From an uncultured candidatus Porisulfidus sp. (GTDB lineage: Bacteria > Pseudomonadota > Gammaproteobacteria > Poriferisulfidales > Poriferisulfidaceae): a stretch of DNA of 64,000 nucleotides. Under the pieces are notes generated by a model. It worked only from the letters and a program-made list of their open reading frames with translations, did not search any database and was not told where the DNA came from. A program made the position numbers and the translations under genes. The number at the start of each line of letters is the position of its first letter. The first letter of the stretch is position 1. Positions 28,088 to 42,399 of the stretch are shown one piece after another. The DNA lies in contig OZ241993.1 in the NCBI GenBank assembly GCA_965204575.1, positions 448,001-512,000 of the forward strand, in the 5' to 3' direction.

Positions 28088-29628
28088 CCGCCCCCCCAGT
28101 GCAGGAATGCCAGCCAGCCGCCCATCGCCAACGCCGCGATTGCGGCAACTGCCAGCCAGAGGCGGGTGTGTTTGAGCTTGCGCCGGGAAGTCTCGAGTTT
28201 CGTCTGAAGCATCGGCGAGGGATCCGGCGGCGGAGCGGCCGGAGGATCTCCAAGGAAATGCTCGACCATCTGCGGGATGCGGTGGCGCACAAGCCGGGCC
28301 AGTGCAAGCAACCCGGTCTGCTCGCTCACCCAGCGATCCATGAAAGGCTTGGCAGTCGTCCACAGGTCGAGATCCGGATACAGTTCGCGGCCAACGCCTT
28401 CGATGTTGACCAGGGTCTTCTGCAACAGCAGCAGTTGCGGCTGCACTTCCATCTGGAAGCGGCTCGCGGTCTGGAACAGCCGCAGCAGCAGGTTCGCAAA
28501 CGAAATCTCGGAAAACGGCCGCTGGAAGATCGGCTCGCATACCGTGCGGATGGCCGCTTCGAAGTCCGCGACCCGGGTCTCGGGCGGCACCCAACCGGAT
28601 TCCACGTGCAGTTCCGCCACCCGTCGGTAGTCGTTGTTGAAGAAAGCCGCGAGGTTGAACGCCAGGTAGCGCTGGTCTGAAGCCGACAGCGATCCCATGA
28701 TGCCGAAGTCCACCGCGCTGTACTTCGGCGATTCCGGGGTCTCCCGGGAAATGAAGATGTTGCCGGGGTGCATGTCGGCGTGGAAGAAATTGTGGTCGAA
28801 CACCTGGGTGAAGAAAATCTCCACGCCCCGTTCGGCCAGGCATTTCAGGTCGACTCCATGACGCACCAGTTCCTCGCGGTCCGAGATCTGGATCCCGTAG
28901 ATGCGTTCCATGGTCATGACGTCCCGGGCGGTGTAGTCCCAGAACACTTCCGGCACGTACAGCAGCTCGCTGCTCTCGAAGTTGCGGCGCAGTTGGCTGG
29001 CGTTGGCGGCCTCCCGCGTCAGATCCAGTTCGTCAAAAATAACGCTCTCGTATTCGGTCACCAGATCCACCGGATGCAGGCGCCGGGATCCCTCCCAGGC
29101 TCGCTCGAGGAACCAGGCCAATCGGTACATCATCCGAATGTCGCGGCGAATCGTCTTCTCGATCCCGGGGCGCAGCACCTTGACGATGACGTCGGTATCA
29201 CCCAGGCGCGCCGCGTGCACCTGGGCCACCGAGGCGGAGGCGAGCGGCGTGGTGTCGAACTGGCTGAACATCTCCCGTACCGACCGCCCCAATGACCGCT
29301 CGACAACCTTGCGCGCCGCCTCCCCGTCGAATGGCGGCACCCGGTCCTGGAGCAGGGCCAGTTCGTCGGCCAGGTCAGTGGGAAGCAGGTCGCGCCGGGT
29401 CGACAGCATCTGCCCGAACTTGACGAAAATGGGACCCAGGTCCTCCAGTGTGTGCCGAATGCGCTCCGCCCGCGGCCTGCGCGACCAGCGGAACCAGTTC
29501 CAGGGCAGCAGGTAAAGCAGCCCGCGTCCCAGCCGGAACCGGGACAGGGCGATTTCGTCGAGGCCGTGGCGCAGCAGCACCCACGGGATATAGAGCGGTC
29601 GCGCGAGAATGCGCCCTTGCCCGTTCAT
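28084..29628 (-). CDS. ubiB: Ubiquinone biosynthesis kinase-like protein UbiB
   Basis: LGPIFVKFGQMLSTRRD, ASASVAQVH, FFHADMHPGN, DFGI. Confidence 0.96.
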   Translation of the reverse strand: MNGQGRILARPLYIPWVLLRHGLDEIALSRFRLGRGLLYLLPWNWFRWSRRPRAERIRHTLEDLGPIFVKFGQMLSTRRDLLPTDLADELALLQDRVPPFDGEAARKVVERSLGRSVREMFSQFDTTPLASASVAQVHAARLGDTDVIVKVLRPGIEKTIRRDIRMMYRLAWFLERAWEGSRRLHPVDLVTEYESVIFDELDLTREAANASQLRRNFESSELLYVPEVFWDYTARDVMTMERIYGIQISDREELVRHGVDLKCLAERGVEIFFTQVFDHNFFHADMHPGNIFISRETPESPKYSAVDFGIMGSLSASDQRYLAFNLAAFFNNDYRRVAELHVESGWVPPETRVADFEAAIRTVCEPIFQRPFSEISFANLLLRLFQTASRFQMEVQPQLLLLQKTLVNIEGVGRELYPDLDLWTTAKPFMDRWVSEQTGLLALARLVRHRIPQMVEHFLGDPPAAPPPDPSPMLQTKLETSRRKLKHTRLWLAVAAIAALAMGGWLAFLHWGGG

Positions 29629-30191
29629 GGCTGGATGCGGTCAATCCGCATTTCAAACCGCTCCAGGTCGTCGCGCAACCGGTCCACCTCGTGTACGAAG
29701 CGGTCGAGTTCGGAGGAACTCGGCAACAAACCCGACTCCTCGTGCAGGTAGTCCCGGGCATTGCTTTCGGCCGCCCCGCCGAAGTTCCGGGCCACCTGCC
29801 GGCATTCTTCAAGGGTCCGCATCACCAGCCGGGCCGGCACGTCGCCGACGGCGCGCGACAGCAGTTCCTCCCAGTCGATGTCCAGGGCGGCCAGAAAGTC
29901 GCGCAAATCCTGCGCGATCTCGCCCTCGCCCTCCAGGTGGATTCCGTCGGCCCGGTCGCTGAGCACATACCGGACGAAGGCCGCCAGATGCCCACGGACC
30001 ACAAGATCTGCTTCTTCTCCCGGAGACCCCAGGGTCAATTTCCCTTCGTCTATATGCAATCCGATAGGAGGCAGCGGCAGGAGTTCCAGCCGAATCGTGC
30101 GCCGACCCATCGCCTGCAGGCGCTTCTGCGACTCTTCGTCGGTACGCAGGGCTTGGTCGATGAGGGCGGAAAGTGAGGCAGACATAGGCAT
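29625..30191 (-). CDS. ubiJ: Ubiquinone biosynthesis accessory factor UbiJ (SCP2 domain)
   Basis: LDIDWEELLSRAVGD, DYLHEES, C-terminal coiled coil; directly upstream of ubiB. Confidence 0.88.
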   Translation of the reverse strand: MPMSASLSALIDQALRTDEESQKRLQAMGRRTIRLELLPLPPIGLHIDEGKLTLGSPGEEADLVVRGHLAAFVRYVLSDRADGIHLEGEGEIAQDLRDFLAALDIDWEELLSRAVGDVPARLVMRTLEECRQVARNFGGAAESNARDYLHEESGLLPSSSELDRFVHEVDRLRDDLERFEMRIDRIQP

Positions 30192-30268
30192 ACAGCCGCT
30201 CTCGGAGCGGCGGGCTTTGTTTCAGATTATAGATTGAGGACAGGCCGACCCGTATAATTGTCAAAACA

Positions 30269-31048
30269 ATGTCCACGTACACGCGGCTGCTTTTTCTGGG
30301 GCTGCTGGCATCGCTCGGCGGTGCTGGCCAAGCGGCGGATTCGCCGTTCTCCTTGGGCTCGGACTCCGGGCCGCAGATCGCCGTACGACTGATTTCCGAC
30401 AAGGCCCCGGAGGAACCATCATCGGACGGCAGTATCGAGGAAGAGGGCGCGGAATCTCCAGAACAGGCGGAAGAAGGTGCGCCTTCCGCACAAACTCCCG
30501 GCGTCCCGGCCTCACAGGAGAACCGCGTCGAAGATCAAGGCCTTCCAGAGAGTCCGGAAGAGGGCCAGCCGGCCGCAGGGCAGGAGACAGCCGGTGAAAC
30601 CGAAGAACTCGGGATCGAAGACGGACTCGAAAGGGAGCCGGAACTTGCGGAACAGGCAAGTATCGAAGAAGGGCAAGAGAGGGAGCTTTCCCGAATCGAG
30701 GCCGTACTGAACCGCGTTGACCAGATCCTGCTGGACGCGGGAATCCGGGCCCGCAAAGAGCGGGAAGGAAGGGTCGACGGCGACGGGACAACAGATAAAG
30801 ACTTGCCGGATTGGGAGACACAGGGCGAAGGCGAGGGGGAAGCTGCAGAGGAAGAGGCCGAACGCGGCGGAGTCGCCGAGGGCCAAGTTCCCGGCGATGT
30901 CCCGACCGGCAAGACGCGTCCGACTCACGGCTACGAGAAAGACGACGACATCGTGACCCGGCAGGTCTGTGAACTGGCGGAACGGGAAGAAGACCCCGAG
31001 GTCCGCAAACAACTGGAGCAAAAATGCAAAAGTCTGAGAGACAGTTAG
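30269..31048 (+). CDS. Secreted, acidic, largely disordered hypothetical protein with a small C-terminal helical domain
   Basis: Signal peptide; E/G/P-rich body; C-terminal DDDIVTRQVCELAEREEDPEVRKQLEQKC. Confidence 0.7.
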   Translation: MSTYTRLLFLGLLASLGGAGQAADSPFSLGSDSGPQIAVRLISDKAPEEPSSDGSIEEEGAESPEQAEEGAPSAQTPGVPASQENRVEDQGLPESPEEGQPAAGQETAGETEELGIEDGLEREPELAEQASIEEGQERELSRIEAVLNRVDQILLDAGIRARKEREGRVDGDGTTDKDLPDWETQGEGEGEAAEEEAERGGVAEGQVPGDVPTGKTRPTHGYEKDDDIVTRQVCELAEREEDPEVRKQLEQKCKSLRDS

Positions 31049-32208
31049 CCCTGCTTACTTTGCTGCTGGCCTTCGCCGGCGGATGCCAGACCGGCATGTC
31101 CGGCATTTACGGAGGCCTGTTCGAAGAATCGTCGGAAGAGCCGGCTGTCGAGCCGGTGCCGGAAGAATGGTATCTGGATGCCGGCATTGTCCAGTTCAAG
31201 GGGGAAGTCGACAAGAAAGAAGTAGCCGAGGGGGATGTGTTCCCCCAGGTGCGGAAAGCCGAAACCCTGTATTTCCCCCAACAGCTGCATCAGGCGATGC
31301 TGCGCGGGGGCGGCTGGCGGCATGTATGGGTGGTGCCGGAACGCGCGGTTCCGGACCTGCGCATCGAGGGCACGATCCTGAAATCGAACGGCTCCGAACT
31401 GGATCTGAAAATCCTCGCCACCGACTCGACCGGCGAACAGTGGCTCAATCGCGTCTACCGACATGAATTCAATGAGGCCGATTATGCCGGCGAAGACCGG
31501 GCCCGACCGTTGGAAGCCCTGTTCGACCGGATCGCGAAGGACCTCCTGGTCGAACGCGACCGCAGGGGAGTGGCAGCCATGAAGGAAATCCGCGCCGTGG
31601 CGGAATTGCGGTTCGCGGAGGAATTCGCACCGCAGGCGTTCGAACGCTACGTCAAGGAACAAAAGGGCCGCACGCGCCTGATTTCCCTGCCGGCCGAAGA
31701 AGACACGTTGTACCAACTGGTACTGCAAATCAAGGAACGCGACGACCTCTTCGTCGAGACCCTGCAGCAATACTCGGAAAGTTTTGCGGAAAAGATCGAT
31801 GCCTCGTACCGCGACTGGGCACGACAGAGTTTCTACGAACGCCGTGCACATGACGAGGGAGTCACCGCCAGCGTGGCCCAAGGCCTTTTGAGCGCGCTGG
31901 CCGTCATCGGAGGAATCGTGGTGATGGCCGACTCCGGATCCTCCCAGCAGGCCCGACAGGCCAGCCAGATCGTGGTCGGGGCCGGAGCCGTTGGCCTCTA
32001 CGACGCCTACCAGGACTACGAAGCAACGGAAATCCACGAGGCCGCGCTCAAGGAGCTCGGACAATCGCTCGACCTGGAGGTGGAGCCCCAGGTCGTGCAA
32101 GTAGAGAACCAGACACGCACGCTTACCGGGTCGGTCGAAGACCAGTACCAGCAGTGGCACGAAATCCTGAACGAGATCTACCTGTCGGAACGTGGCGGCC
32201 TGAATTGA
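31024..32208 (+). CDS. Hypothetical lipoprotein
   Basis: LALLTLLLAFAGG-C lipobox-like signal; Gly/Ala-rich hydrophobic hairpin near the C-terminus. Confidence 0.72.
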   Translation: MQKSERQLALLTLLLAFAGGCQTGMSGIYGGLFEESSEEPAVEPVPEEWYLDAGIVQFKGEVDKKEVAEGDVFPQVRKAETLYFPQQLHQAMLRGGGWRHVWVVPERAVPDLRIEGTILKSNGSELDLKILATDSTGEQWLNRVYRHEFNEADYAGEDRARPLEALFDRIAKDLLVERDRRGVAAMKEIRAVAELRFAEEFAPQAFERYVKEQKGRTRLISLPAEEDTLYQLVLQIKERDDLFVETLQQYSESFAEKIDASYRDWARQSFYERRAHDEGVTASVAQGLLSALAVIGGIVVMADSGSSQQARQASQIVVGAGAVGLYDAYQDYEATEIHEAALKELGQSLDLEVEPQVVQVENQTRTLTGSVEDQYQQWHEILNEIYLSERGGLN

Positions 32209-32933
32209 TCCCAGTCGCACTGGCGCTGGCGGCGGGGCTAACCGCAGGAACCGCCGCGGCCGAGGGCATCCAGGATCGGGCACTTCGCGCCATGCTGGAT
32301 TCGGATTGGACCCGGGCGGTCGAGTTGTGGGCAAAGGTGGACGGGCAGCGAGCCCGGGAATACCTTCAGCAGGCCCGGGCGGAACTTCAGTATCAGCGAA
32401 CCCGGTCCCTGCTGGACGAGGCCCGTGCAGCCCGACAGAAAGAAGACTGGGCTGCGGCCGATGCCGCCTACCTCAAGGCACTGGCCATTTCGCCCCATTT
32501 GAAGCCGGCGCACCAAGGCCGAGAGCAGGTCGCCCTGTACATCGAGGCATACCGGCGGCTGGACGCGTTGAAACTGCCGGAAGGCCTCTACGACAAGGTC
32601 ATCCGAGCCCGGGCGAAAGAGTGGCTCGCCTTTGTCCGAGAGAAACGACTCGGTGACCGAAAGATCGACAAGGCTCGCACAGGGCTTGTGGAGGCATTGA
32701 AGCTGGCGCAAATCCCGGTCTCCCTGGTCCTGACTTCGGACAACCAGTCCGAAATTGAAATTTACGGCGTCGGGAAACTCGGGCGGCTCGAACGCCAGAC
32801 CCTGAAGTTGATCCCAGGTGACTACATCGTCGTCGCCAACCGGCCCGGATACCGAGATGTTCGCGCGACGCTGAAAGTGCGTCCCGGCAAGGCTCTTACC
32901 CTGGACATCCGATGCACGGAGTCGATCCGGTGA
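32205..32933 (+). CDS. Secreted helical (TPR-like) protein with C-terminal PEGA-like domain
   Basis: TTG 32205 overlaps the upstream stop; signal peptide; WAAADAAYLKALAISP; LIPGDYIVVANRPGYRDVR. Confidence 0.7.
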   Translation: MIPVALALAAGLTAGTAAAEGIQDRALRAMLDSDWTRAVELWAKVDGQRAREYLQQARAELQYQRTRSLLDEARAARQKEDWAAADAAYLKALAISPHLKPAHQGREQVALYIEAYRRLDALKLPEGLYDKVIRARAKEWLAFVREKRLGDRKIDKARTGLVEALKLAQIPVSLVLTSDNQSEIEIYGVGKLGRLERQTLKLIPGDYIVVANRPGYRDVRATLKVRPGKALTLDIRCTESIR

Positions 32934-34747
32934 TTCTTGAGCACGAACCGGTCCAGGCCAAGCCATACCGGCCGCCCAAGCGGGAAAGGCGCCGCAAACG
33001 GCCTTCAGCACCCCGATTCCGTGGGGCGGGGCTTGCGGTCCTGCTGCTGGCGCTGATGACGGCAGGAGCCTGGTACGCCATGGGGCAGGCGCAACTCATC
33101 AGCTTCGAGACCGATCCCGCAACCGCCACGGTGCACCTCGAGAGCCCGCACATGATGGTGAACGGGCAAGCCTTGCTCTGGCGTGGCCGGCATATCGCGA
33201 ATGTGGAAGCAGAAGGCCACTATCCCCGGCAGATCGAATTCCAGGCGGGAGGAGACGCGCCGCGCACCGTGCAGGTCACTCTAGACCCCTTGCCGGGCAA
33301 ACTCCGGGTTTCCACGACCCCTGAAACCGAGGGGAAAGTCCGGGTGGACGGCGAACACGCCGGGAAGATCGGAGAAATACTGGAGGATCTCTCCCCGGGT
33401 CGGCATGTCGTGCAGGTCAGCGTGGAGGGCTTCAAAATGCACCGGCAAACGGTAGAGATCGAGGGATACGGCCAACTGACCGAGATCGAGATTTCGCTCC
33501 AAAAAATCGCGGAACCCGCCTTGCTGACGATTTCCAGTACGCCCGAGGCCGCGGATATATTGATCGACGGCACTTGGCGGGGACGGACCCCGAAGCGGAT
33601 CGTGTTGACTCCCGATACCCGGGTGGAGGTCGCCCTGCTATTTCCCGGGCATGCCCCGGACCGGCAAACCTTTAAGCTGGAGCCCGGCCGGCAAAGCCAC
33701 ACAGTCACCCTGACACCACGCCTTGGCACCCTTGAACTTTGGCCGACGCCAACTAACGCGACGGTCCGCGTCGATGGACAGGTAGAGCTCCGGCGCCAAC
33801 TGCAGTTGGCACAGCGGGCCCATACCGTGGAGGTTTCCGCGCCGGGCTATGTAACAAAGAAATACACCGTGGTGCCCCACCCGGATACCCCGAAGCAACT
33901 TTTCGCCGTCTTGCAATCACAGGCGGAGGTCGAATACTCCCGGCGCCAGAAGCATGAACGGGGTCGCGGGCTGGTCTTCGTCGAGTTCCGGCCCCGCGAA
34001 TCGTTCGAGATCGCCACGACGCGCCGCCGCATCCCGGTGCGCCTAACCCGATCGTTCGCGATCATGGACAAGGAGGTCACCAACGCCCTTTACCGGCGCT
34101 ACCGGGCCGGACATGACTCCGGAGAAGTGTTCGGCAAGCGCCTGGACCGCCCGAGCCAACCGGTGGTGCGGGTCAGCTGGGCGGATGCCGCATTGTTCGC
34201 GAACTGGATGAGCGAACAGGTAGGGGTTGCGCCATTCTACCGGGTGCGCGACGGACAAATCGTGGGATTCGATGCGCAGGCGACCGGATACCGGTTGCCG
34301 AGTGAAGCCGAATGGGTCTGGTTGACCCGTTCCGGAAAGCGGCATGCCTGGGGTGACTTCATGCCGCCCCCGGACCGGTTCGGCAATCTGGCGGACGCTT
34401 CCGCCTCCGACATCGTGCAGCCGACACTGGAAGGATACAACGACGGGTATGCCGTCAGCGCCGACGTCGGAAGCTTCCCGCCTTCGGGCAAGGGGTTGTA
34501 TGATTTGCCGGGCAACGTGGCGGAATGGATGCACGACGTGTTTCTCGACAAGCTGCGGGTTTCGGCCCGGCCGGAGACAGAGCGAGTCAATCCGCTGGGC
34601 GAAGCCAGCGGCCAGTACTACGTTATCCGGGGATTCGGATGGCGCGACGGCGGGCGCAAGGAGTTGAGCCTGAGCAACCGCCGCTACGACCGCGACCCCA
34701 AGGACGACGTGGGGTTCCGGCTGGCTTATTACCTGGAGAAGCCATGA
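32930..34747 (+). CDS. Membrane-anchored multi-PEGA protein with C-terminal FGE/SUMF1-fold domain
   Basis: One N-terminal TM; repeated PEGA units (PGRHVVQVSVEGF, ISSTPEAADILIDG, HTVEVSAPGY); EVTN, PVVRVSW, YRLPSEAEW, GLYDLPGNVAEW, VGFRL. Confidence 0.85.
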   Translation: MILEHEPVQAKPYRPPKRERRRKRPSAPRFRGAGLAVLLLALMTAGAWYAMGQAQLISFETDPATATVHLESPHMMVNGQALLWRGRHIANVEAEGHYPRQIEFQAGGDAPRTVQVTLDPLPGKLRVSTTPETEGKVRVDGEHAGKIGEILEDLSPGRHVVQVSVEGFKMHRQTVEIEGYGQLTEIEISLQKIAEPALLTISSTPEAADILIDGTWRGRTPKRIVLTPDTRVEVALLFPGHAPDRQTFKLEPGRQSHTVTLTPRLGTLELWPTPTNATVRVDGQVELRRQLQLAQRAHTVEVSAPGYVTKKYTVVPHPDTPKQLFAVLQSQAEVEYSRRQKHERGRGLVFVEFRPRESFEIATTRRRIPVRLTRSFAIMDKEVTNALYRRYRAGHDSGEVFGKRLDRPSQPVVRVSWADAALFANWMSEQVGVAPFYRVRDGQIVGFDAQATGYRLPSEAEWVWLTRSGKRHAWGDFMPPPDRFGNLADASASDIVQPTLEGYNDGYAVSADVGSFPPSGKGLYDLPGNVAEWMHDVFLDKLRVSARPETERVNPLGEASGQYYVIRGFGWRDGGRKELSLSNRRYDRDPKDDVGFRLAYYLEKP

Positions 34748-34962
34748 AACGGCTTTGGTGGGTGTCCCTGTACGCGGCGGCGGCCCTGGCGTGGGCCGAA
34801 GAGCCTCCTGCACCGCAAGCGGAAGAAGAGGACCGCGAAGTCATCGAAGTCCTGACCGAGGAGGATCTCAAGCGGGAGGCCCCGCAGATCACGCTCAAGC
34901 AATTGACCCCGAAAGAAACCATTTCCCTCGACCAAGCCGTGGATATGCCCAGTGACATTTAA
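34744..34962 (+). CDS. Small secreted hypothetical protein
   Basis: ATG 34744; MKRLWWVSLYAAAALAWA signal peptide; acidic; ends ETISLDQAVDMPSDI; overlaps both neighbours. Confidence 0.65.
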   Translation: MKRLWWVSLYAAAALAWAEEPPAPQAEEEDREVIEVLTEEDLKREAPQITLKQLTPKETISLDQAVDMPSDI

Positions 34963-35833
34963 ACTGAACAACCTGACCGGGCGCTGGCGCGAACACGAAG
35001 TGTTCTGGCAATTGCTGGCGTTGGCGGTGTCGTTCGTGCTGGTGCACGCGGCGTATGAACTGGTGGTGCGCCCAGTCGCCTATGAGGAGTTGCAGCGCCA
35101 GGCCGTTGCCGAGGAACAGGCTGAAATCGCACCGCCGACGCTTGGCGCGCGGATCGCCGTAGTCGTCAAGGACTACGAGCAGGAGGCCTGTTTTGTCGCC
35201 CTGTTCTGGGCACTTGCCATCATGTGGATGAAGCTGATGAAGCTGCGCTTCGCGCGAAGGCTGCTGAGCCAGCGTGGCCGGCAAGACGAGGAGAGTTTCC
35301 TGGAAACCCGGGAAACCGATCTGGTCCTGCCTCAGGCGCATGACCGGGCACGCTTCACCGACGTTCGGGAGTACGTGCGAATGCAGGGCTATGGCAGTAC
35401 CGTGCTCTACCGGGCTGCCGACGCCTGTCTGGATCGCTTCTTCACGACGCATTCCGTATCGGACGCCACTGCGGCCATGAAGGCCAGTTGCGAGATGGAG
35501 TCGGACCGGCAGGACACCGAACTGGCACTGGTGCGTTACCTGACCTGGGCCATTCCTTCGCTTGGATTCATCGGCACGGTGCGCGGGATCGGCGCGGCCC
35601 TGGGGCAGGCCGAAGAAGCCACGCGCGGCAACATCGGGCCGGTGACGGAAAGCCTTGGCGTGGCATTCAATTCAACGTTTGTCGCCCTGCTGATCAGCCT
35701 GTTCATCATGCTGCTGCTGCACAAACTGCAGGAAGCCCAGGAGTCGCTGGTACTGGATGCCCAGGAGCATTGCCAGCATCACCTGCTGCGTTACCTGCGG
35801 GAGCGGACGCGGACGGATGAGCCTTCTTCTTAG
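34952..35833 (+). CDS. MotA/TolQ/ExbB proton-channel family protein
   Basis: AIPSLGFIGTVRGI and LGVAFNSTFVAL channel helices; two additional N-terminal TM segments. Confidence 0.9.
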   Translation: MTFKLNNLTGRWREHEVFWQLLALAVSFVLVHAAYELVVRPVAYEELQRQAVAEEQAEIAPPTLGARIAVVVKDYEQEACFVALFWALAIMWMKLMKLRFARRLLSQRGRQDEESFLETRETDLVLPQAHDRARFTDVREYVRMQGYGSTVLYRAADACLDRFFTTHSVSDATAAMKASCEMESDRQDTELALVRYLTWAIPSLGFIGTVRGIGAALGQAEEATRGNIGPVTESLGVAFNSTFVALLISLFIMLLLHKLQEAQESLVLDAQEHCQHHLLRYLRERTRTDEPSS

Positions 35834-36728
35834 AATCGACAGCTACGCGCTGGCACAGCCCGACGGCACCGACTGGCGGGTCGAGTGGTGCTTGGCCCGC
35901 CGGAATTCAAAAGACGGTTGGCGATTCGGCAAGGATGCAGGCGAACGGCTGCAGCCCCGACGCACCGACAAGGAAAACAACGAATACCTGGAAGCACCGG
36001 GGACGGGAGAAAGCCGAGGCACGTCGAATATCGACCTTGCGTATTTGCAGTTGCGGGAATTCCTGCCGGAAGGGGAAGGCCCGATCGACCTTTCGGTGAG
36101 CGGAGGCATTGATCAATTGCGGCTCGAATGCTTGCTGGGCGTGCTGGAGGCCTTGGGCTACACGCCCCGAAGTGTATTCCCGACCGCACTGCTGGCAGCC
36201 CGGGACCTTGAACCCGGCCGCCACGGCATCATCGAACTCGGGCGCAGCCGCAGCTGGGTCAGCACCATTGACGTCCAGCCGGACCGTGCGCGACTGGAAT
36301 CGGTCCAGGATTACGGAGACTTTGGCTTCTATCACCTCTTCACTCAATGGATGGAGAACGCGGCGGAGGCCTTCGCGGCCCAGCACCGCTTCGATATGCA
36401 TCGCAACCTCGCGGCAAACCGCGGGCAGCTGTTCGAACAAATGTGCCAAGGCTTCGCCGGGAAATCCGGACAGATCCGGCTCACTCTGGATTCCCGGCCC
36501 GTGACGCTGGACGAAAAGATCTTTCAGGCCCGCTGGCCGAAGTCTTCTCTCGATACGGAGGGGCTGGAGTTCCTGCTGCTGCCTCCCCTGACGCGGGTAT
36601 TGCCGCTGCCGGAACAGGGGTTGGGTCTCCCTCTCTGCGCCAATCCCACGCCCCAGGCCGTCTCCGACCTGGACGCCGCCGTGCCGGAAGACGGGCAAGC
36701 CCGCCGCTGCGTGGCTCTCTCCTGCTGA
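35817..36728 (+). CDS. Hypothetical cytoplasmic protein, probable degenerate actin/Hsp70 (ASKHA) fold
   Basis: ATG 35817; no signal peptide or TM; hydrophobic pattern aligns by eye with the Hsp70 nucleotide-binding domain. Confidence 0.5.
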   Translation: MSLLLRIDSYALAQPDGTDWRVEWCLARRNSKDGWRFGKDAGERLQPRRTDKENNEYLEAPGTGESRGTSNIDLAYLQLREFLPEGEGPIDLSVSGGIDQLRLECLLGVLEALGYTPRSVFPTALLAARDLEPGRHGIIELGRSRSWVSTIDVQPDRARLESVQDYGDFGFYHLFTQWMENAAEAFAAQHRFDMHRNLAANRGQLFEQMCQGFAGKSGQIRLTLDSRPVTLDEKIFQARWPKSSLDTEGLEFLLLPPLTRVLPLPEQGLGLPLCANPTPQAVSDLDAAVPEDGQARRCVALSC

Positions 36729-37772
36729 ATGTCCAGACGCCGCCGCAGCCGTTTCCTGAACCCGTTCGGCCTGGCTTTCCTGGATGTCATGTCCTGCGGA
36801 CTGGGGGCCGCGGTCCTGCTGTTCCTGATCATCGACCACAACCTGACCGAGCTGGCGCAGGCATCGGAAAGCGGCGAGGGAGATATGCAACTGCTGGAGC
36901 AGTCGATCCAGGAACAGGAAGAACTGATCACCGAGCACCGCAGACAGATGCGTCAACTGCAGCGCGAGCTGGAAAGCCTGGCGCAGCAGCGCGTGTCCGC
37001 CATCACCACCCAGGCCGAACTTAGCGCCCGCCAGCCGAAGGCATCCGACACGGCCCGGCTGGAACGGGAACTGCGCGAGCGCAAGAAGAAGCTCCAGGAA
37101 GCGGAGAAAAGCAAGCAGCTGAGGGCAAAAGAAGGAGAAGGGCAACGCCAGTACGTGGCCGGCTTCCGGGTCGAGGGCCGCCGCATCTTGATCCTGCTGG
37201 ATCGCTCGGCCAGCATGCAGGACGAGCGAATCGCCACGATCATCCGAAACAAGTTTCTCCCGGTGAAATACCAGGTCGAGAGCTACAAGTGGCGCTGGGC
37301 GCGTTCCATCTTCGAGTGGGTCCTCTCACACCTGCCGCAAGAGGCGCAATACCAAGTCTGGGGGTTCAGCACGACGGCGAAGCCGGCACTGCCGGGGAGC
37401 GGATGGCTGCCGGCAAAAGACGAGAAACGGATGGAAGAGGTCATCTCGGCCGTGCAGGGCTGGGTTCCTTCGGGGGGGACCCGCCTCGATACGACTCTCA
37501 AGGAGATTGCCCAGATCAAGCCCAGACCGGATGCAGTCTATCTGATTACGGACGGCCTGCCGACACAGGGAAAATCCTGGTTCAAGAAAAATCGGGTCAG
37601 CCCTTCCCAGCGCATGGATTTTTTCCAAGAGGCAACGGGAGGCATTGCGGGCCCGCCTTTCAACATTGTCCTGCTTCCGCTTGAAGGCGACCCGGCAGCG
37701 GCCGGGGCCTACTGGGGATTTGCGATGAGGACGAACGGGCAATTCCTCGCCCCGGCGGAGGACTGGCCATGA
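36729..37772 (+). CDS. Membrane-anchored vWA protein with ExbD/TolR-like N-terminal helix
   Basis: RRRRS...LAFLDVMSCGLGA TM; coiled coil; MIDAS LLDRSASM, GGT, ITDG. Confidence 0.85.
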   Translation: MSRRRRSRFLNPFGLAFLDVMSCGLGAAVLLFLIIDHNLTELAQASESGEGDMQLLEQSIQEQEELITEHRRQMRQLQRELESLAQQRVSAITTQAELSARQPKASDTARLERELRERKKKLQEAEKSKQLRAKEGEGQRQYVAGFRVEGRRILILLDRSASMQDERIATIIRNKFLPVKYQVESYKWRWARSIFEWVLSHLPQEAQYQVWGFSTTAKPALPGSGWLPAKDEKRMEEVISAVQGWVPSGGTRLDTTLKEIAQIKPRPDAVYLITDGLPTQGKSWFKKNRVSPSQRMDFFQEATGGIAGPPFNIVLLPLEGDPAAAGAYWGFAMRTNGQFLAPAEDWP

Positions 37773-38734
37773 GGCGCGTCCGCCGGCAAGCCGACAACCA
37801 TTTGTCGTTTCTCGACGTGGTCAGCTGCGGATTCGGGGCCATGGTGCTGTTGATCCTGATCACTAAAACCACTGTGGGTGAGCCGGTCGAAGACCTTCGG
37901 GCCCAAATCGAAGCACTGCAGGAACAACTCTCACGCATCATTCAGGTCCGGGCAAGCCTGGCAACCGAACAACTTGCGGTGCAAACCCGGGTGCACGCTC
38001 AGCAGGAGAAGCTGCAGGACGAGCGGAGGGCCGTAGAGGAAGCGCGGCAGGCGAACGCTGGCGCCCAGGCGCAGGCCCTGATCGAGGCAGACCTGAAGAC
38101 CGCGCTGCAACGCCTCAATGAAGAAATGCGGCGGCTGAACCTGACTGCATCCAAGCCGGATGTGATCGGGGGCATCCCGGCCGACAGCGAATACATCATC
38201 TTTATTGTCGACACGTCCGGCAGCATGAAACGGTTTGCCTGGGAGGCCGCCAGGCAGCAACTGGTGGCTCTGCTGGACGCCTATCCGAAAGTGCGCGGAC
38301 TCCAAGTGATGAACGACATGGGCACGTACATGTTCAGCGGCTACCGGGGGCGCTGGATTCCGGACACGCCCGCACGGCGGAAGGTCCTCCTGCAACGCTT
38401 TGACTCCTGGCATTCGTACAGCAATTCGAGCCCCGTCGAAGGCATTCTGGAAGCCATCAAGCGGTTCCGCATGAAGTCCGACAAAATCAGTCTGTACATC
38501 TTCGGCGACGAATATACCGGCGAGTCAATCCAGCGGGTGATCGACACGGTTGAAGATCTCAACTACCGGGATGGGGAGCGGCAGGTCCGCATTCATGCGG
38601 TCGGGTTCTTCACCCGCGCGCAGATTGAGAAGATTGATCCGAAATACGCCGACACCACCAGCCGGTTCGCGGCACTGATGCGGGAATTGACCCGGCGCAA
38701 CGGAGGGACTTTTCTAGGGGTTACGGTGGATTGA
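37769..38734 (+). CDS. Second membrane-anchored vWA protein with ExbD/TolR-like N-terminal helix
   Basis: RRVRR...LSFLDVVSCGFGA TM; coiled coil; MIDAS IVDTSGSM, FGDE; IHAVGF, NGGTF. Confidence 0.85.
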   Translation: MRRVRRQADNHLSFLDVVSCGFGAMVLLILITKTTVGEPVEDLRAQIEALQEQLSRIIQVRASLATEQLAVQTRVHAQQEKLQDERRAVEEARQANAGAQAQALIEADLKTALQRLNEEMRRLNLTASKPDVIGGIPADSEYIIFIVDTSGSMKRFAWEAARQQLVALLDAYPKVRGLQVMNDMGTYMFSGYRGRWIPDTPARRKVLLQRFDSWHSYSNSSPVEGILEAIKRFRMKSDKISLYIFGDEYTGESIQRVIDTVEDLNYRDGERQVRIHAVGFFTRAQIEKIDPKYADTTSRFAALMRELTRRNGGTFLGVTVD

Positions 38735-38745
38735 AACTTAAAGAG

Positions 38746-38768
38746 AAACGCCTCCCGGAGGAGGCGTC
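38746..38768. terminator. Hairpin between convergent vWA and ankyrin genes
   Basis: acgcctcc-cgga-ggaggcgt with an A-rich left flank. Confidence 0.55.
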
Positions 38769-38816: not shown

Positions 38817-39455
38817 TTAGCCTGGGTGGGTCAAGATTTCTGGATCCATATTTATTTTCGCCCCAGCATTAACCAGAAGTTGCTGGATTTGAAAGTTTGA
38901 ATTGTACCGAGCCGCAAGGTGCAACGGCCTGTTCCCATTTCTGTTTTCCGCATTGACGTCTGCGCCTGCGTCAATCAGAGCCTGCAATGCTTCTTTGTTT
39001 AAATTGTCCTCCGCCGCATAATGCAACGGCGTGCACCCGCCTCCACTTTTCGCATGAACATCTGCGCCCGCATCAATCAGGGCCTGCAGGACTTTCTTCG
39101 AATTGTGCGGCGCCGCAAAGTGCAACGGCGTGTACCCGCTCTCGGTTTTCGCACGAACATTCGCGCCCGTGTCAATCAGAGTCTGCAGGACTTTCTTCGA
39201 TTTGTTCCGCGCCGCATAGTGCAGCGGCGTGCGCCCGCCCTCGGTTTTCGCATGAACATCCGCACCCGCATCAATCAGAGTCTGCAGAACTTTCTTCGAA
39301 TTGTCCCCCGCCGCAAGGTGCAGCGGCGTGCGCCCGAACTTATCTTTCACATGAACATCCGCGTCCATGTCAATCAGGAACTGCACGACTTTATTCGATT
39401 CGTCAAAAGCCGCGTCAAGCAACAGCGTCGTGTCCCTACTCTCGTCCTTTGCCAT
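38817..39455 (-). CDS. Ankyrin-repeat protein
   Basis: Five G-x-(T/R)PLHxAA...LIDAGADV repeats plus a degenerate N-terminal unit. Confidence 0.93.
   Translation of the reverse strand: MAKDESRDTTLLLDAAFDESNKVVQFLIDMDADVHVKDKFGRTPLHLAAGDNSKKVLQTLIDAGADVHAKTEGGRTPLHYAARNKSKKVLQTLIDTGANVRAKTESGYTPLHFAAPHNSKKVLQALIDAGADVHAKSGGGCTPLHYAAEDNLNKEALQALIDAGADVNAENRNGNRPLHLAARYNSNFQIQQLLVNAGAKINMDPEILTHPG
38915..39415. repeat. 99-bp tandem repeat encoding the ankyrin units
   Basis: tgca(a/g)cggcgtg recurs at 39022, 39121, 39220 and 39319 (period 99); a more divergent copy at 38920. Confidence 0.9.
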
Positions 39456-40361: not shown

Positions 40362-41093
40362 TTAGTCGATCCGTGTTCCGCGGTGGATCGCCACGATCCC
40401 GGCGCTCAGATTGAAATACTGGCAGGATGCGAATCCCGCGGCACGCATCATTTCGCGCAAGGTCCGTTGATCCGGATGCACGGCGATGGATTCCGCCAGG
40501 TAGCGGTAGCTGTCGCGATCCCCGGCCACCAGTTCACCAAGCTTCGGCACGGCCTGATGCGTGTACGCATGATAGAGCGGCTCCAGCCAAGCGGCCGGTT
40601 GGGAGAATTCGAGCACGACCGCCAGTCCGCCGGGACGCAGCACCCGGTACATATCCTGCAAGCAGGCCGAGGGGTTCGTGAAGTTGCGCAGGCCGAACCC
40701 GACCAGAACCCGGTCGAACGACTCCGACTCGAAAGGGAGCGTCATCGCATTTCCCTGTACGGCCGGGATATCCGTCAAACCCTCGTCCAGCAGCCGGTCC
40801 CGGCCTTGGGTCAGCATGCTGCTGCTGAAGTCGCATAGGACCACCTGTCCTTCCGGGCCGACCTTCGAGCGAACCAGCCGGGCCAAGTCGCCAGTGCCGC
40901 CAGCGAGATCCAGCACACGTTGACCCTCCCGGAGTTGCGCGAGCAGCGCAAACGTGCGTTTCCAGACCCGGTGCAGCCCGAACGACATTAGGTCGTTCAT
41001 CAGGTCGTAGCGAAACGCCACCGACTCGAACACCTCGTTTACAAGACGGGTTTTCTCGTCCGGCTCGACCTCCCGGTAGCCAAAGCGCGCCAT
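40362..41093 (-). CDS. ubiE: Ubiquinone/menaquinone C-methyltransferase
   Basis: YDLMNDLMSFGLHRVWK, LDLAGGTGD, FGLRN, YRYLAESI. Confidence 0.96.
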   Translation of the reverse strand: MARFGYREVEPDEKTRLVNEVFESVAFRYDLMNDLMSFGLHRVWKRTFALLAQLREGQRVLDLAGGTGDLARLVRSKVGPEGQVVLCDFSSSMLTQGRDRLLDEGLTDIPAVQGNAMTLPFESESFDRVLVGFGLRNFTNPSACLQDMYRVLRPGGLAVVLEFSQPAAWLEPLYHAYTHQAVPKLGELVAGDRDSYRYLAESIAVHPDQRTLREMMRAAGFASCQYFNLSAGIVAIHRGTRID

Positions 41094-41490: not shown

Positions 41491-42399
41491 TTAATCCCGC
41501 CGCCGTGCTCGCGGATGCGTGGAATCGTAAGTCTGGGCTAGGTGCTGATAATCGAGGTGTGTGTAAATCTGCGTGGTGCTGATGCGGCGGTGCCCCAGCA
41601 ATTCCTGCACGGCACGCAGGTCGCCTGATGATTCCAGCAGGTGGCTGGCGAAGGAATGGCGAAACAAGTGGGGATGCAGCGCCTGGTCGCTTCCTGAGGC
41701 ACAGCCAAACTGGCGCAGGCGCATTTGCACGTTACGGGCCGACAGGCGCCGTCCCCGCTGACCCACAAACAGTGCGGTCTCCTCGGAATGCGCCATCTTC
41801 CCGCGCACATCAAGCCAACCACGCAAAGCCTTCAGCGCCATGCGCCCGACTGGAAGCTTTCGCTCCACCCGGCCTTTCCCGAGAACCAGAACTTCTCCAG
41901 CCGCCATGTCCAGGTCATTGCAATCCAGCCCCACCAGTTCGGACAGGCGCATGCCACTGGAATACAAGAGCTCGAACATGGCCAGGTCCCGGTATCCCAG
42001 CGGGCCATTCGGCGTCGAATCCAGCAGGCGCATCACGGCATCGACATCCAGTACCTTGGGGAGCGTCCGGGGCTGCCGGGGGGCGCGAACCCCACTCGCC
42101 GGGTTGTCCGCCCGGCGATGGGTCGCCACCAGATGATCGTAGAACCCGCGCAACGCCGACAGGACGCGCTGGATGGATCGCGGGGACCGCCCCTGCCGGA
42201 ACAAATGCGCGGCATAGCGCTGAACGTCGCCTTCATGCGCCTCGGCGGGTTCGGCCGATTGTTCGCCGAGCCAGCGGATGAATTGCCGAATATCGCTGGT
42301 GTAGCCAGCGACGGTATGCACCGAATAATTGCGTTCCCAGCGCAACTTGGCCTGGAATTCCTCCAGCCACTTTTTCGTGTCTTCTTCGAGCTTGCTCAT
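41491..42399 (-). CDS. xerC: Tyrosine recombinase XerC
   Basis: LYSSGMRLSEL, HPHLFRHSFASHLLESSGDLRAVQELLGH, TTQIY; dapF-DUF484-xerC order; ATG at 42399. Confidence 0.95.
   Translation of the reverse strand: MSKLEEDTKKWLEEFQAKLRWERNYSVHTVAGYTSDIRQFIRWLGEQSAEPAEAHEGDVQRYAAHLFRQGRSPRSIQRVLSALRGFYDHLVATHRRADNPASGVRAPRQPRTLPKVLDVDAVMRLLDSTPNGPLGYRDLAMFELLYSSGMRLSELVGLDCNDLDMAAGEVLVLGKGRVERKLPVGRMALKALRGWLDVRGKMAHSEETALFVGQRGRRLSARNVQMRLRQFGCASGSDQALHPHLFRHSFASHLLESSGDLRAVQELLGHRRISTTQIYTHLDYQHLAQTYDSTHPRARRRD

Follow-up and report, generated by a model that had tools for sequence, protein, structure and literature searches.

A conserved nine-gene operon that probably encodes an ion-driven envelope motor with paired vWA heads

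An operon from an uncultured candidatus Porisulfidus sp., at positions 30269-38734 (plus strand) of the window (the whole 64,000-nucleotide stretch of DNA analyzed here), probably encodes an ion-driven inner-membrane motor of the 5:2 type with vWA heads, for which a Tol-like force output is favoured. The motor core, formed by g6 with g8 and g9, is likely, and the motor ion is probably a proton. The initial annotation of this DNA as encoding an ion-driven envelope motor is largely right. Its statement that similar gene sets were recorded only as hypothetical proteins no longer holds for the core, which is described in section 8 of PMC12204202 (Mol Biol Evol 2025).

The operon consists of nine co-directional open reading frames (ORFs) that overlap by 4-55 nt or, at the g7/g8 junction, abut. 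The genes and flanking signals are as follows:

30253..30258, plus strand: TATAAT hexamer, a possible -10 element, 11 nt upstream of the g1 ATG; read directly
30269..31048, plus strand: g1, 259 aa; secreted, acidic and low-complexity, with a conserved C-terminal helical module
31024..32208, plus strand: g2, 394 aa; lipoprotein with an FlgT/PelC/TolB-N-like N-terminal domain
32154..32933, plus strand: g3, 259 aa; GTG start uncertain; TPR-like, with a C-terminal PEGA/CarboxypepD_reg-like beta-sandwich
32912..34747, plus strand: g4, 611 aa; bitopic inner-membrane PEGA-FGE protein
34744..34962, plus strand: g5, 72 aa; small, acidic, secreted or signal-anchored
34952..35833, plus strand: g6, 293 aa; channel subunit of the MotA/TolQ/ExbB family
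35817..36728, plus strand: g7, 303 aa; cytoplasmic, Hsp70/actin (ASKHA) fold; ORF open from 35757
36729..37772, plus strand: g8, 347 aa; transpore helix, coiled coil and vWA head
37769..38734, plus strand: g9, 321 aa; g8 paralogue of like architecture
38747..38768, no strand assigned: G+C-rich hairpin with a 9-bp stem, between the end of g9 and a convergent ankyrin-repeat gene

The start of g5 was set at the ATG at 34744, which is followed by a signal peptide and conserved in relatives; the mechanical ORF begins at 34525. ORF calling reproduced the gene layout of the initial annotation, and its domain calls hold: FGE and PEGA in g4, MotA_ExbB in g6, VWA_3 in g8, VWA below the cut-off in g9 and a weak PEGA match in g3. 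The flanking signals it named fared less evenly. The TATAAT hexamer is present, but a consensus scan called no full sigma-70 promoter there, and the region holds no more promoter-like sites than chance would give (1 found, 1.4 expected). Likewise, the hairpin taken to end the operon exists, but its T-run is on the minus strand only, and it is therefore placed between convergent genes; the total of terminator-like sites is also what chance would give (10 found, 10.7 expected).

The g6 product matches the MotA_ExbB family (Pfam PF01618, 6e-12) and has four predicted transmembrane (TM) helices and an invariant periplasmic loop, KDYEQEAC. Its pore threonines, T209 and T242, are invariant in 46 orthologues and align with two TM threonines of the solved TolQ 8odt, at positions 145 and 178 as counted from the printed alignment; they bear out the earlier reading of g6 as a MotA/TolQ-type ring subunit. 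The protein is remote from solved TolQ (alignment E 0.0037), reaches 24.7 bits with the NCBIfam tolQ model, far under the cut-off of 221, and belongs to a family that forms a separate clade (support 98/98).

In g8, an Arg-rich N-terminal tail leads into a transpore helix that bears Asp19 (FLDV); a coiled coil of ~110 aa connects this helix to a vWA head, whose metal-site motif is intact (MIDAS, DRSAS...GGT...TDG). The g9 protein likewise has the FLDV Asp, a coiled coil and a vWA head with DTSGS. While g8 passes the Pfam cut-off for VWA_3 (28.5 vs 27 bits), g9 remains under that for VWA (21.8 vs 23.8 bits) and aligns with g8 through the invariant DxSxS. Across 28 g8/g9 sequences, R8, F17, L18, D19, C23, G24, G26, A27 and the MIDAS DxSxS are invariant. 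FLD and DxSxSM occur jointly in all 74 g8 ORFs, with an Asp-to-MIDAS spacing of 139-156 (median 151), and in 67 of 72 g9 ORFs, with a spacing of 132-145 (median 141). In eight of the 150 representatives listed (P0346, P0354, P0358, P0367, P0368, P0386, P0241, P0383), a g8-type and a g9-type head are present in one chain that lacks the helix.

As judged from these sequences, g8 and g9 are most likely not accessories but the ExbD-type subunits that the operon seemed to lack, in a 5:2 motor on the TolQ-like g6. They would be the paired partner subunits that had been sought by analogy with AglQ/AglS, the Asp helix being found in both proteins. This also qualifies the observation that TonB, TolA, ExbD, an OmpA-domain MotB and a TonB-dependent receptor are missing: family profile searches of the nine operon proteins found no match to the ExbD, TonB_C, TolA, OmpA or TonB-dependent receptor families, but g8 and g9 carry an ExbD/TolR-type helix with an invariant Asp. 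The genome's own three ExbD/TolR proteins have the same layout of a basic tail followed by hydrophobic-hydrophobic-Asp. Pfam ExbD does not detect the g8 and g9 helices even at E 10, and the likeness to ExbD thus rests on a short motif and its position. This failure of detection and the three ExbD/TolR genes in the genome would suit a different arrangement, in which the vWA proteins are Bat-like or regulatory and g6 is partnered by an ExbD/TolR protein encoded elsewhere. Such an arrangement is very improbable: each ExbD/TolR gene adjoins its own ExbB/TolQ gene (another PF01618 gene less than 1 kb away), whereas no such pairing is seen at g6; in g8 as in g9, the Asp-bearing helix is invariant; g8 directly abuts g6 at loci without g7; and, unlike in Bat operons, there is no MoxR or DUF58 gene.

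In the motor proposed here, five g6 copies would encircle one g8 and one g9, and the pore would be occupied by their N-terminal helices bearing the ion-binding Asp, as in the helices of ExbD, TolR and MotB. In the periplasm, both proteins would form a coiled coil of constant length (~110 residues or ~15 nm) and end in vWA heads whose metal-ion site is intact; these heads would act as a heterodimer. Ion flow would turn or pull this axle, and the heads would hold a set of periplasmic or outer-membrane partners encoded by the operon. In the outer membrane, these would be two lipoproteins: g1, a disordered tether whose C-terminal module is conserved, and g2, with its ring-lipoprotein-like domain. 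In the inner membrane, g3 and g4, the latter a non-catalytic PEGA-FGE protein, would serve as scaffolds. The invariant C-terminus of g5 probably docks on the motor or heads, and g7 may be a regulator or anchor in the cytoplasm. The overall function favoured, a more tentative proposal than the motor itself, is that the energised inner membrane transmits force in a Tol-like manner to outer-membrane lipoproteins, for envelope tethering or remodelling.

The published core comprises tolQ-like genes with pairs of vWA proteins having a transpore helix and without a tolR/exbD gene; section 8 of PMC12204202 models a 5:2 complex by AF3 for a family seeded on Idiomarina. That account is a computational description (Fig. 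4c,d), in which function is left unassigned and which notes that no deletion phenotype has been reported. As described there, the system resembles the operon in its tolQ-like gene without tolR/exbD, in the pore threonines of the TolQ-like subunit, in its occurrence in Proteobacteria and in having two different vWA proteins, each with an Asp-bearing N-terminal transpore helix. The Idiomarina-seeded family was matched to the operon by this description, not by sequence. The terms "PEGA" and "FGE" do not occur in the main text of that paper, and its section 8 mentions neither fused heads nor a neighbour that is a lipoprotein, a small protein or an Hsp70-fold protein. In the literature searched, no description was found of the system's two outer-membrane lipoproteins, of its TPR/PEGA protein and non-catalytic PEGA-FGE protein, of its FPVDI-ending small protein and cytoplasmic Hsp70-fold protein, or of a natural fusion of both vWA head types in a single chain. 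No homologue of the operon proteins is assigned to a Ton, Tol, Bat, Zorya or gliding system that has been characterised.

A neighbourhood survey of 80 loci showed conservation of the gene set between genomes. With several loci cut by contig ends, ORFs were assigned to g2 at 68, g3 at 67, g4 at 77, g6 at 73, g8 at 74 and g9 at 72 of them, and 66 of 68 loci have a g1 ORF upstream of g2. The nine-gene order is kept in many Gammaproteobacteria; carriers that can be cultured include Microbulbifer, Halioxenophilus, Exilibacterium and Chromatocurvus. It is also kept, with g7 absent, at two loci of one family in another class; g5 is present at the other-class loci L090 and L091 as well. This synteny indicates that the cluster is more than a chance arrangement, and the operon has been retained in a genome of 1.82 Mb. 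ZorAB is a 5:2 motor used in defence, and the operon might by the same token serve a Zorya-kind anti-phage system with a MotAB-like sensor and effectors. That role is hardly credible, given a gene order that is stable across families and classes, the lack of a nuclease or helicase effector in the operon, and a search in which no PADLOC family scored below E 0.0025 and none was a Zor protein.

The cytoplasmic location proposed earlier for g7 fits its lack of any hydrophobic segment. Its AF2 model (pLDDT 81, pTM 0.79) matches the DnaK nucleotide-binding domain (NBD) in Foldseek (2.1e-10) and yields VIA-align Z-scores of 18.7 with Hsp70 NBDs, 16.3 with MreB and 11.9 with PilM. In most relatives, longer g7 orthologues carry a C-terminal FHA-like domain, which the g7 of the window lacks. 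A positional orthologue is present in 66 of 68 loci; its absence from L050, L051 and the other-class loci implies that g7 is not essential to the machine.

The acidity noted earlier for g1 is marked (65 of 259 residues are Asp or Glu). Its C-terminal motif, DDDIV-x-RQ...DPE-x-R..., is present in 63 of the 66 ORFs upstream of g2, and a lipobox-like motif in 34 of the 66; most g1 orthologues are lipoproteins. The g2 protein, without a Pfam or NCBIfam match, has a lipobox (...AGGC) and two hairpins, one long and helical, the other hydrophobic and glycine-rich (residues 284-330). Its AF2 model (pLDDT 76.9) matches the LPHT ring/FlgT (1.8e-4) and PelC (3.4e-3) in Foldseek. In VIA-align, where Z 7-8 is typical even of models without a clear match, the model gives middling scores (Z 9.5, 8.8 and 8.7). 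By these two comparisons, the domain resembles FlgT, PelC and the TolB N-domain. The g3 protein, a short form of ~500 aa orthologues, is helical and membrane-anchored or secreted; its PEGA match is weak (Pfam, E 0.0068), and an orthologue has clear TPR repeats (4e-9) and CarboxypepD_reg (1.3e-4). In g4 (Pfam FGE-sulfatase 3.1e-29, PEGA 1e-18), a cytoplasmic N-tail is followed by a TM helix (36-57), PEGA repeats and, at the C-terminus, an FGE-fold domain that has no cysteines; the last 260 aa hold 0-1 Cys in 15 of 15 sequences. A small ORF ending in [FMLIV]PxD[IVL] lies between g4 and g6 at 73 of 77 loci; the ending is ...MPSDI in the g5 of the window and most commonly FPVDI.

Several of these features recall secretion or export machines such as T9SS, with its PorL/M motor and FGE-fold PorK ring, or Pel, with its PelC lipoprotein ring, in which case g1, g5 or a polymer would be moved out of the periplasm. 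The cysteine-free FGE-fold g4 has GldK/PorK as its best NCBIfam match (4.9e-18), the g2 domain aligns with PelC and a CsgG-complex chain (Z 8.4-8.8), and g1 and g5 are secreted and disordered with conserved ends. Export is nevertheless unlikely, since the operon encodes no outer-membrane channel, secretin or beta-barrel, and the nearby OMP_b-brl gene of the window has tblastn matches only in the close relatives L001 and L003 among the 80 loci. In addition, the GldK score of g4 (65.6 bits) is far under the cut-off of 350, the GldL, GldM and GldN families gave no match, and g4, which is not a lipoprotein, has its anchor in the inner membrane. The operon shares with PorKLMN/GldKLMN, the core of the type IX secretion and gliding systems, an ion-driven motor beside a non-catalytic FGE-fold protein, but its motor is of the MotA/TolQ family by sequence rather than GldL/M, it has no PorN/GldN, and its FGE protein has an inner-membrane anchor and PEGA spacers.

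A TolQ-like subunit with two different partners, as in AglQ/AglS, together with TPR proteins and lipoproteins in the cluster, also invites comparison with the Myxococcus AglRQS-Glt machine for surface motility or adhesion, with the vWA heads or their partners as adhesins. This is improbable. Because a tether of ~110 residues links the heads to the inner membrane, no surface-exposed component is predicted; no Glt or Gld family was matched (GldK being under its cut-off), and the partners here, unlike those of Myxococcus, have coiled coils and vWA heads. Moreover, by their record titles the carriers include planktonic clades (SAR92, Porticoccaceae, Halieaceae) and MAGs with 1.6-1.8 Mb genomes, none of which are known to glide.

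The Tol-like output favoured above draws on the resemblances of the g2 domain, on the genes that extend the cluster in relatives and on the retention of the operon in a 1.82 Mb genome. Tol-Pal (TolQRA, TolB, Pal, CpoB) also has a pentamer subunit of the TolQ type, a partner helix that bears an Asp and a long connector in the periplasm; it too includes an outer-membrane lipoprotein, a TPR protein and a TolB-N-like domain, here in g2. The operon differs in lacking TolA, the periplasmic domain of TolR, the propeller of TolB and an OmpA-like Pal, in making connector and head part of the axle, and in the extra N-terminal TM helix of g6. ExbBD-TonB likewise belongs to the 5:2-type motor family and directs force to the outer membrane, but with an ExbD family domain, TonB and a TonB-dependent receptor that the operon lacks. 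The MotAB/PomAB stator has an A subunit of the same four-TM topology, and its B-type helix carries an Asp close to the cytoplasmic end; the operon encodes no OmpA-like domain for peptidoglycan binding, and its cluster has no flagellar context. Relatives have further genes in the cluster, for a TPR/TonB_C-like protein, two additional lipoproteins and a BepA-like M48 protease; the first of these, a TPR protein whose TonB_C domain is near threshold, is found upstream at 44 of the 80 loci, in relatives only.

The nine-gene operon at 30269-38734 is a real, conserved and uncharacterised machine of the cell envelope. As claimed in the initial annotation, its genes are co-directional: nine ORFs on the forward strand, whose ends abut or overlap by 4-55 nt. 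The protein descriptions proposed there, which are used in the list below, are borne out by domain scans and hydropathy.

30253-30258 (+): TATAAT box
30269-31048 (+): g1, secreted acidic protein
31024-32208 (+): g2, lipoprotein
32154-32933 (+): g3, TPR-like/PEGA protein
32912-34747 (+): g4, PEGA-FGE protein
34744-34962 (+): g5, small secreted protein
34952-35833 (+): g6, TolQ-like subunit
35817-36728 (+): g7, cytoplasmic protein
36729-37772 (+): g8, vWA protein
37769-38734 (+): g9, vWA protein
38747-38768: hairpin

The start of g5 is best placed at ATG 34744, overlapping the g4 stop, because the conserved protein of relatives starts with a signal peptide at that position; the mechanical ORF from 34525 runs within g4. 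The start of g7 is best placed at 35817 and reads MSLLL. The TATAAT reported upstream of the operon is present and statistically unremarkable, with promoter-like sites occurring at chance level (1 found vs 1.4 expected). The hairpin proposed to end the operon is also present and separates g9 from a convergent ankyrin-repeat gene; its T-run is on the reverse strand only. It is equally unremarkable in statistical terms, as terminator-like sites too are at chance (10 found vs 10.7 expected).

Both gene set and gene order are conserved across genomes, as established by the kind of gene-neighbourhood survey that the initial annotation had recommended. A scan for g6 relatives, using one genome per species, returned at least 597 loci; the best 80 were fetched, several of them ending at contig ends, and the locus counts given here refer to these best 80. 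On ORF and tblastn assignment, g2 is found in 68, g3 in 67, g4 in 77, g6 in 73, g8 in 74 and g9 in 72 of the best 80 loci, always in the order of the window. Searches by tblastn largely missed g1, g5 and g7, yet all three are conserved. A positional g7 is present in 66 of the 68 loci having both g6 and g8 (it is absent from L050 and L051), and an iterated profile from the window g7 recovered all 66 at E ≤2.6e-52. Between g4 and g6, 73 of 77 loci have a small ORF ending [FMLIV]PxD[IVL], the ending being FPVDI in 41 of the 73. Likewise, 66 of 68 loci have an ORF upstream of g2, and 63 of these 66 g1-position ORFs share the C-terminal motif [DE]D[IV][IVL]x[RK]Q.

The nearest relatives, as labelled in their records, are Chromatiales and Candidatus Porisulfidus MAGs, with g6 92-98% identical. 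More distant carriers are labelled as Arenicella, Microbulbifer, Halioxenophilus, Exilibacterium, Chromatocurvus and Kineobactrum, as well as Porticoccaceae/SAR92, Halieaceae and Woeseiaceae. Culturable and non-pathogenic carriers among the labels include Microbulbifer agarilyticus, M. harenosus, Halioxenophilus aromaticivorans, Exilibacterium tricleocarpae, Chromatocurvus halotolerans and Kineobactrum sediminis; in these, the function of the operon becomes testable. The g2 family occurs in 34 of 400 sampled genomes of the class and 28 of 320 genera (E ≤1e-10), a tally that takes in the window's own genome and one unpublished genome (G039). In a phylum-wide sample, g2 is matched in 21 of 401 genomes, 17 of which belong to one family of another class. 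Two loci of that family encode g2, g3, g4, g5, g6, g8 and g9 in the same order, without g7, and their g5 proteins are 47-63 aa long and end SAATFPVDI. The window's own genome, at 1.82 Mb, has retained the operon. Among the 23 sequencing runs listed, no RNA run carries the sequence.

The g6 protein is a member of the MotA/TolQ/ExbB family (PF01618, 6e-12) remote from all curated members. Its NCBIfam tolQ score is 24.7 bits vs a cut-off of 221, and its solved relatives are TolQ chains only (E 0.0037). In a tree with the genome's five other PF01618 members, the g6 orthologues form a separate clade (98/98) with very long branches. Hydropathy suggests four TM helices (17-42, 80-98, about 196-216 and 237-255), the N-terminal one being additional to the topology of TolQ and ExbB; the periplasmic loop falls at residues 43-79 and the cytoplasmic domain at 99-195. 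Three threonines, T209 (GFIGTVRGI), T232 and T242 (FNSTF), are invariant in 46 orthologues, as is the periplasmic loop KDYEQEAC. Alignment with TolQ 8odt places T209 and T242 on its two TM threonines, counted as residues 145 and 178. These two positions form the ring described as functionally essential in PMC12204202.

The vWA proteins g8 and g9 are paralogues, 19% identical, with a common architecture: a short Arg-rich tail, one TM helix starting SFLD[IV], a coiled coil of ~110 residues and a vWA domain. Across 28 sequences from both paralogue groups, R8, F17, L18, D19, C23, G24, G26, A27 and the MIDAS motif DxSxS are invariant. Among ORFs from the best 80 loci, FLD and DxSxSM are both present in 74 of 74 for g8 and 67 of 72 for g9. 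The Asp-to-MIDAS distance is 139-156 residues in g8 (median 151) and 132-145 in g9 (median 141), a narrow range that suggests a constraint on length; with ~0.15 nm for each residue of helix, the stalk would measure roughly 15 nm. In the PDB, the g8/g9 profile finds mostly coiled-coil proteins and one vWA chain, 9c4f_I of ITIH4 (E 0.0054, positions 154-297).

Pfam ExbD is undetected, even at E 10, in the N-terminal 43-50 residues of g8, g9 and two orthologues. The genome's own ExbD/TolR proteins nevertheless begin as g8 and g9 do, with a basic tail, two hydrophobic residues and Asp-[VI]. The genome has three ExbD/TolR genes, each less than 1 kb from another PF01618 gene and none within 700 kb of g6. 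The g8/g9 pair lies 0.9 kb downstream of g6 and directly abuts it in loci lacking g7. The ion-driven envelope motor proposed in the initial annotation is supported with one amendment: the vWA proteins, through their Asp-bearing helix, are themselves the ExbD-type subunits.

Judged by described features, the core of the operon probably belongs to a family first described, as a prediction only, in 2025 (PMC12204202, Mol Biol Evol). In this TolQ-like + TPH-vWA motor, as in the window, a PF01618 gene adjoins vWA genes (g6 with g8/g9), and tolR, exbD and motB are absent (no PF02472 or OmpA match in the nine proteins). The transpore helix carries a conserved Asp (here D19, invariant in 28 of 28 sequences), the vWA proteins form a heterologous pair (g8 and g9), and the pore has a threonine ring (T209 and T242 in g6). 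On this comparison of described features, all defining features stated in PMC12204202 are present. That paper offers an AF3 model with the Asp pair within the threonine ring, and reports a family found 'predominantly throughout Proteobacteria and Verrucomicrobia' from an Idiomarina seed, with function unknown. The initial annotation listed such gene sets only as hypothetical proteins, which for the core has been overtaken by this printed prediction.

The words PEGA and FGE are absent from the main text of PMC12204202, whose Fig. 4c or S1.7 may show some accessory genes. A further paper, PMC12505986, classifies non-flagellar MotAB relatives, with no mention of vWA in its accessible text. Literature searches on vWA/TolQ/PEGA motor terms found PMC12204202 as the only description. 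In the literature searched, no account was found of the accessory module, of the g5 end-motif, of the Hsp70-fold partner or of the fused head pairs. A distinctive property of the g6/g8/g9 motor family is that the output domain, the vWA head, is placed directly on the axle.

Flagella, Ton uptake and Tol envelope maintenance all run on ion-driven 5:2 motors, as do gliding and type IX secretion, and Zorya defence. The possibility that the operon is a characterised Ton, Tol or Bat system was checked, and it matches none of the three. Tol-Pal is built from TolR, TolA, TolB and Pal, and none of these families is found in the operon. ExbBD-TonB relies on ExbD (PF02472) and TonB_C partners, neither of which is found in the nine proteins; TonB_C comes near threshold in the upstream gene of relatives only. 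The claimed absence of TonB, TolA, ExbD, an OmpA-domain MotB and a TonB-dependent receptor is upheld, as no such family is matched in the nine proteins. Bat operons combine a MoxR AAA+ ATPase and DUF58 protein with BatA/BatB, and no AAA+ or DUF58 match is found here; the BatC TPR reaches only 16 bits in a g3 orthologue. With regard to gliding and export, the PorKLMN-GldKLMN machinery of the T9SS includes GldL, GldM and GldN, which have no matches in the operon, and g4 is below the GldK cut-off. With regard to defence, PADLOC (ZorA, ZorB and all models) has no match for eight proteins and two chance-level coiled-coil matches for g9 (E 0.0025 and 0.0054).

The heads of g8 and g9 also occur outside the motor. 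The g8/g9 profile, run against 1.84 billion representative proteins, matched 843 at E ≤1e-30, of which 150 were listed. Eight among the 150 matches listed combine both head types, that of g8 and that of g9, in a single chain that lacks a transpore helix. The g8-type head comes first in P0346, P0354, P0358, P0367, P0368 and P0386, and the g9-type head in P0241 and P0383. Four of these proteins (P0358, P0367, P0368, P0386), each ~750 aa, have the same layout, in which a membrane domain occupies the N-terminus; in P0367, the one of the four scanned, a BlaR1-type Peptidase_M56 domain precedes the head pair (5.3e-17). As natural single-chain fusions are classic evidence of pairing, they argue for a physical pair (heterodimer) of the two heads. 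The fusions also show that the head pair serves as a module elsewhere, which suggests a reusable unit for sensing or binding. In P0241, the heads form a secreted tandem.

The cytoplasmic protein g7 is modelled (pLDDT 81, pTM 0.79) as a two-lobed ASKHA fold, with a Foldseek match to the DnaK NBD (2.1e-10). VIA-align gives Z 18.7 for both Ssz1 (rmsd 3.8, 275 residues aligned) and Ssb1, followed by MreB (Z 16.3), FtsA (Z 12.4) and PilM (Z 11.9); the sequence profile reaches the Hsp70 NBD at E 0.008. The family consensus has LxINDxxL at the first strand, G108 and R191 as the only invariant residues, and no recognisable glycine-rich phosphate loop of the GGG type. Long orthologues of ~440 aa have an extra FHA-like C-terminal domain, which the window g7 lacks. 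Pfam detects FHA in 1 of 30 members (9.3e-14) and FHA PDB chains match at E 0.17-2.2 only; 99% of members of sister clusters in the Atlas have FHA. Binding of this domain to a phospho-Thr in the N-terminal tail of g8 (TFSL) was considered and dropped on the distribution of the Thr, which is present at 25 of 59 long-g7 loci vs 3 of 8 loci without a g7 ORF (from the best 80 of at least 597).

The accessory protein g4 is bitopic in the inner membrane and combines PEGA repeats with an FGE-fold domain; its best curated match is GldK/PorK (65.6 bits vs a cut-off of 350). Catalytic FGEs are defined by a conserved Cys pair in the C-terminal part of the fold. The window g4 has zero Cys, 15 of 15 orthologues have 0-1 Cys in their last 260 residues, and no Cys is found at a common C-terminal position pair in these 15. 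Lacking the cysteine pair, g4 cannot be a formylglycine-generating enzyme of known kind. A g4 orthologue of 815 aa at locus L055 (4962-7406, record label Woeseiaceae) has an extra N-terminal cytoplasmic region that is FHA-like by eye, paralleling the FHA-like C-terminus of long g7 forms.

The g3 protein is a short form of a ~500 aa TM-TPR-beta-sandwich protein. A motif like I-E/Q-P-x2-F-x-P recurs in the cytoplasmic N-tails of g3 and g4 orthologues (e.g. L065, L023, L008). The strict regex 'IEPxxFxP' is matched in 13 of 76 g4 and 6 of 63 g3 orthologues from the best 80 of at least 597 loci, and inspection by eye also shows looser variants. The motif may serve the actin-fold g7 as a docking site, as in the analogous PilM-PilN pair, which we offer as a lead only.

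The lipoprotein g2 has no family match in Pfam or NCBIfam. In an AF2-type model (pLDDT 76.9), its N-terminal domain resembles the FlgT/LPHT ring (Foldseek 1.8e-4; VIA-align Z 9.5, 156 residues aligned), PelC (Z 8.8, rmsd 2.4, 108 aligned), the TolB N-domain (Z 8.7) and a curli-complex chain (Z 8.4). These scores are middling, and the modelled resemblance to FlgT, PelC and TolB-N is best treated as a lead. Beyond this domain come a long helical hairpin and then a glycine-rich hydrophobic hairpin (284-330).

The remaining two are small or low-complexity proteins with conserved ends. Orthologues of g1 are rich in P, S, A, Q, T and G and presumably disordered; 34 of 66 from the best 80 of at least 597 loci have a lipobox-like motif, and the C-terminus is a conserved two-helix module of ~45 residues. 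A match of g1 to DUF6381 (E 0.0074) was discarded as below cut-off. The g5 protein has a signal peptide and an acidic linker whose length varies, and its extreme C-terminus is invariant. Its counterpart in the other class is reduced to a hydrophobic helix plus the end motif, which would place the motif near the inner membrane.

In relatives beyond the window's clade, four more proteins are encoded on the same strand (e.g. L026 75-1235, 12217-15197). Among the best 80 of at least 597 loci, an upstream TPR protein with near-threshold TonB_C (20.6-25.6 bits, cut-off 24.6) occurs in 44, two further downstream lipoproteins in 56 and 55, and a BepA-like M48 protease in 40 (NCBIfam BepA 2.1e-40, below its cut-off). 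With these queries, none of the four (the TPR/TonB_C protein, the 241-aa and 216-aa lipoproteins and the protease) matched the window, and the 241-aa lipoprotein and TPR/TonB_C queries found nothing in the rest of the 1.82 Mb genome. On this basis, the window's cluster is a reduced version of nine genes, in which g3, g4 and g7 are shortened. The parts list is now complete, at nine genes and up to thirteen in relatives.

We infer that the motor would be a 5:2 complex of g6 with the g8/g9 heterodimer as axle. Ions would flow through the Asp/Thr site, and the vWA heads would engage a periplasmic or outer-membrane partner set. For the machine as a whole, we favour a Tol-like role, in which it would exert force on, or tether, outer-membrane lipoproteins. 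This is favoured because the operon has lipoproteins but no outer-membrane channel, because it includes a TPR protein and a TolB-N/PelC-like domain, and because relatives add a BepA-like protease. Retention of the operon in a small genome and in planktonic clades not known to glide also favours the Tol-like role. Export and motility, the functions of the T9SS and gliding systems that the operon fails to match, rank lower, as do defence, for which PADLOC gave chance-level matches only, and a reading in which the complex is not a motor.

The conserved acidic ends of g5 and g1 are attractive candidates for ligands of the MIDAS sites. A more elaborate scheme, which we regard as improbable, is an envelope 'winch' in which the heads ride on a rotating axle. 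The heterodimeric heads would use their metal sites to grip the g5 end (…EEISED..V.FPVDI-COOH) and/or g1 (DDDIV-x-RQ…), the latter being a disordered outer-membrane lipoprotein. An outer-membrane lipoprotein ring (g2), kept in alignment by the PEGA-FGE and TPR scaffolds, would be reeled in or put under tension by ion flow, and the cytoplasmic Hsp70-fold/FHA protein g7 would gate the motor on Ser/Thr phosphorylation. If true, this would add to Ton and Tol a third principle of force transduction in the envelope, and a modular one, since the same head pair is elsewhere fused to a BlaR1-type sensor. Residues that lend themselves to testing are Asp19, T209 and T242, together with the MIDAS motif and the FPVDI end.

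A second, orphan motor pair is encoded in the same genome outside the window (L086 347-2172, contig C1 of G000, ~1589.5-1591.4 kb). Its first member is a 306-aa MotA/ExbB-family protein (PF01618, 27.4 bits). The second, of 299 aa, joins a MotB/ExbD-like helix (…FTDIMMVVVIVF…) to a long coiled coil and a small C-terminal domain, with no ExbD family match and no vWA domain.

The operon sits on the opposite strand between ubiE and ubiJ (SCP2)-ubiB (28084-30191, 40362-41093), genes that are usually neighbours. In the related MAG locus L002 (1072-3170, 11914-12642), the nine genes exactly fill the ubiJ-ubiE gap; compared with L002, the window has two further genes, one for ankyrin repeats and one for an OMP beta-barrel. 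The ankyrin protein (38817-39455, reverse strand, 212 aa) converges on the operon end and consists nearly entirely of Ank_2 repeats (1.2e-48). On the other flank, a mechanical UvrD-helicase ORF of 980 aa (25901-28843, reverse strand) shares ~760 nt with the ubiB ORF (28084-29628, reverse strand); its real start is probably further downstream, as the helicase domain begins at residue 263. A tyrosine recombinase of 615 aa (41491-43338, reverse strand) has a Phage_integrase domain (4.7e-49) and a SAM-like N-domain, together with ~320 extra N-terminal residues of unrecognised nature.
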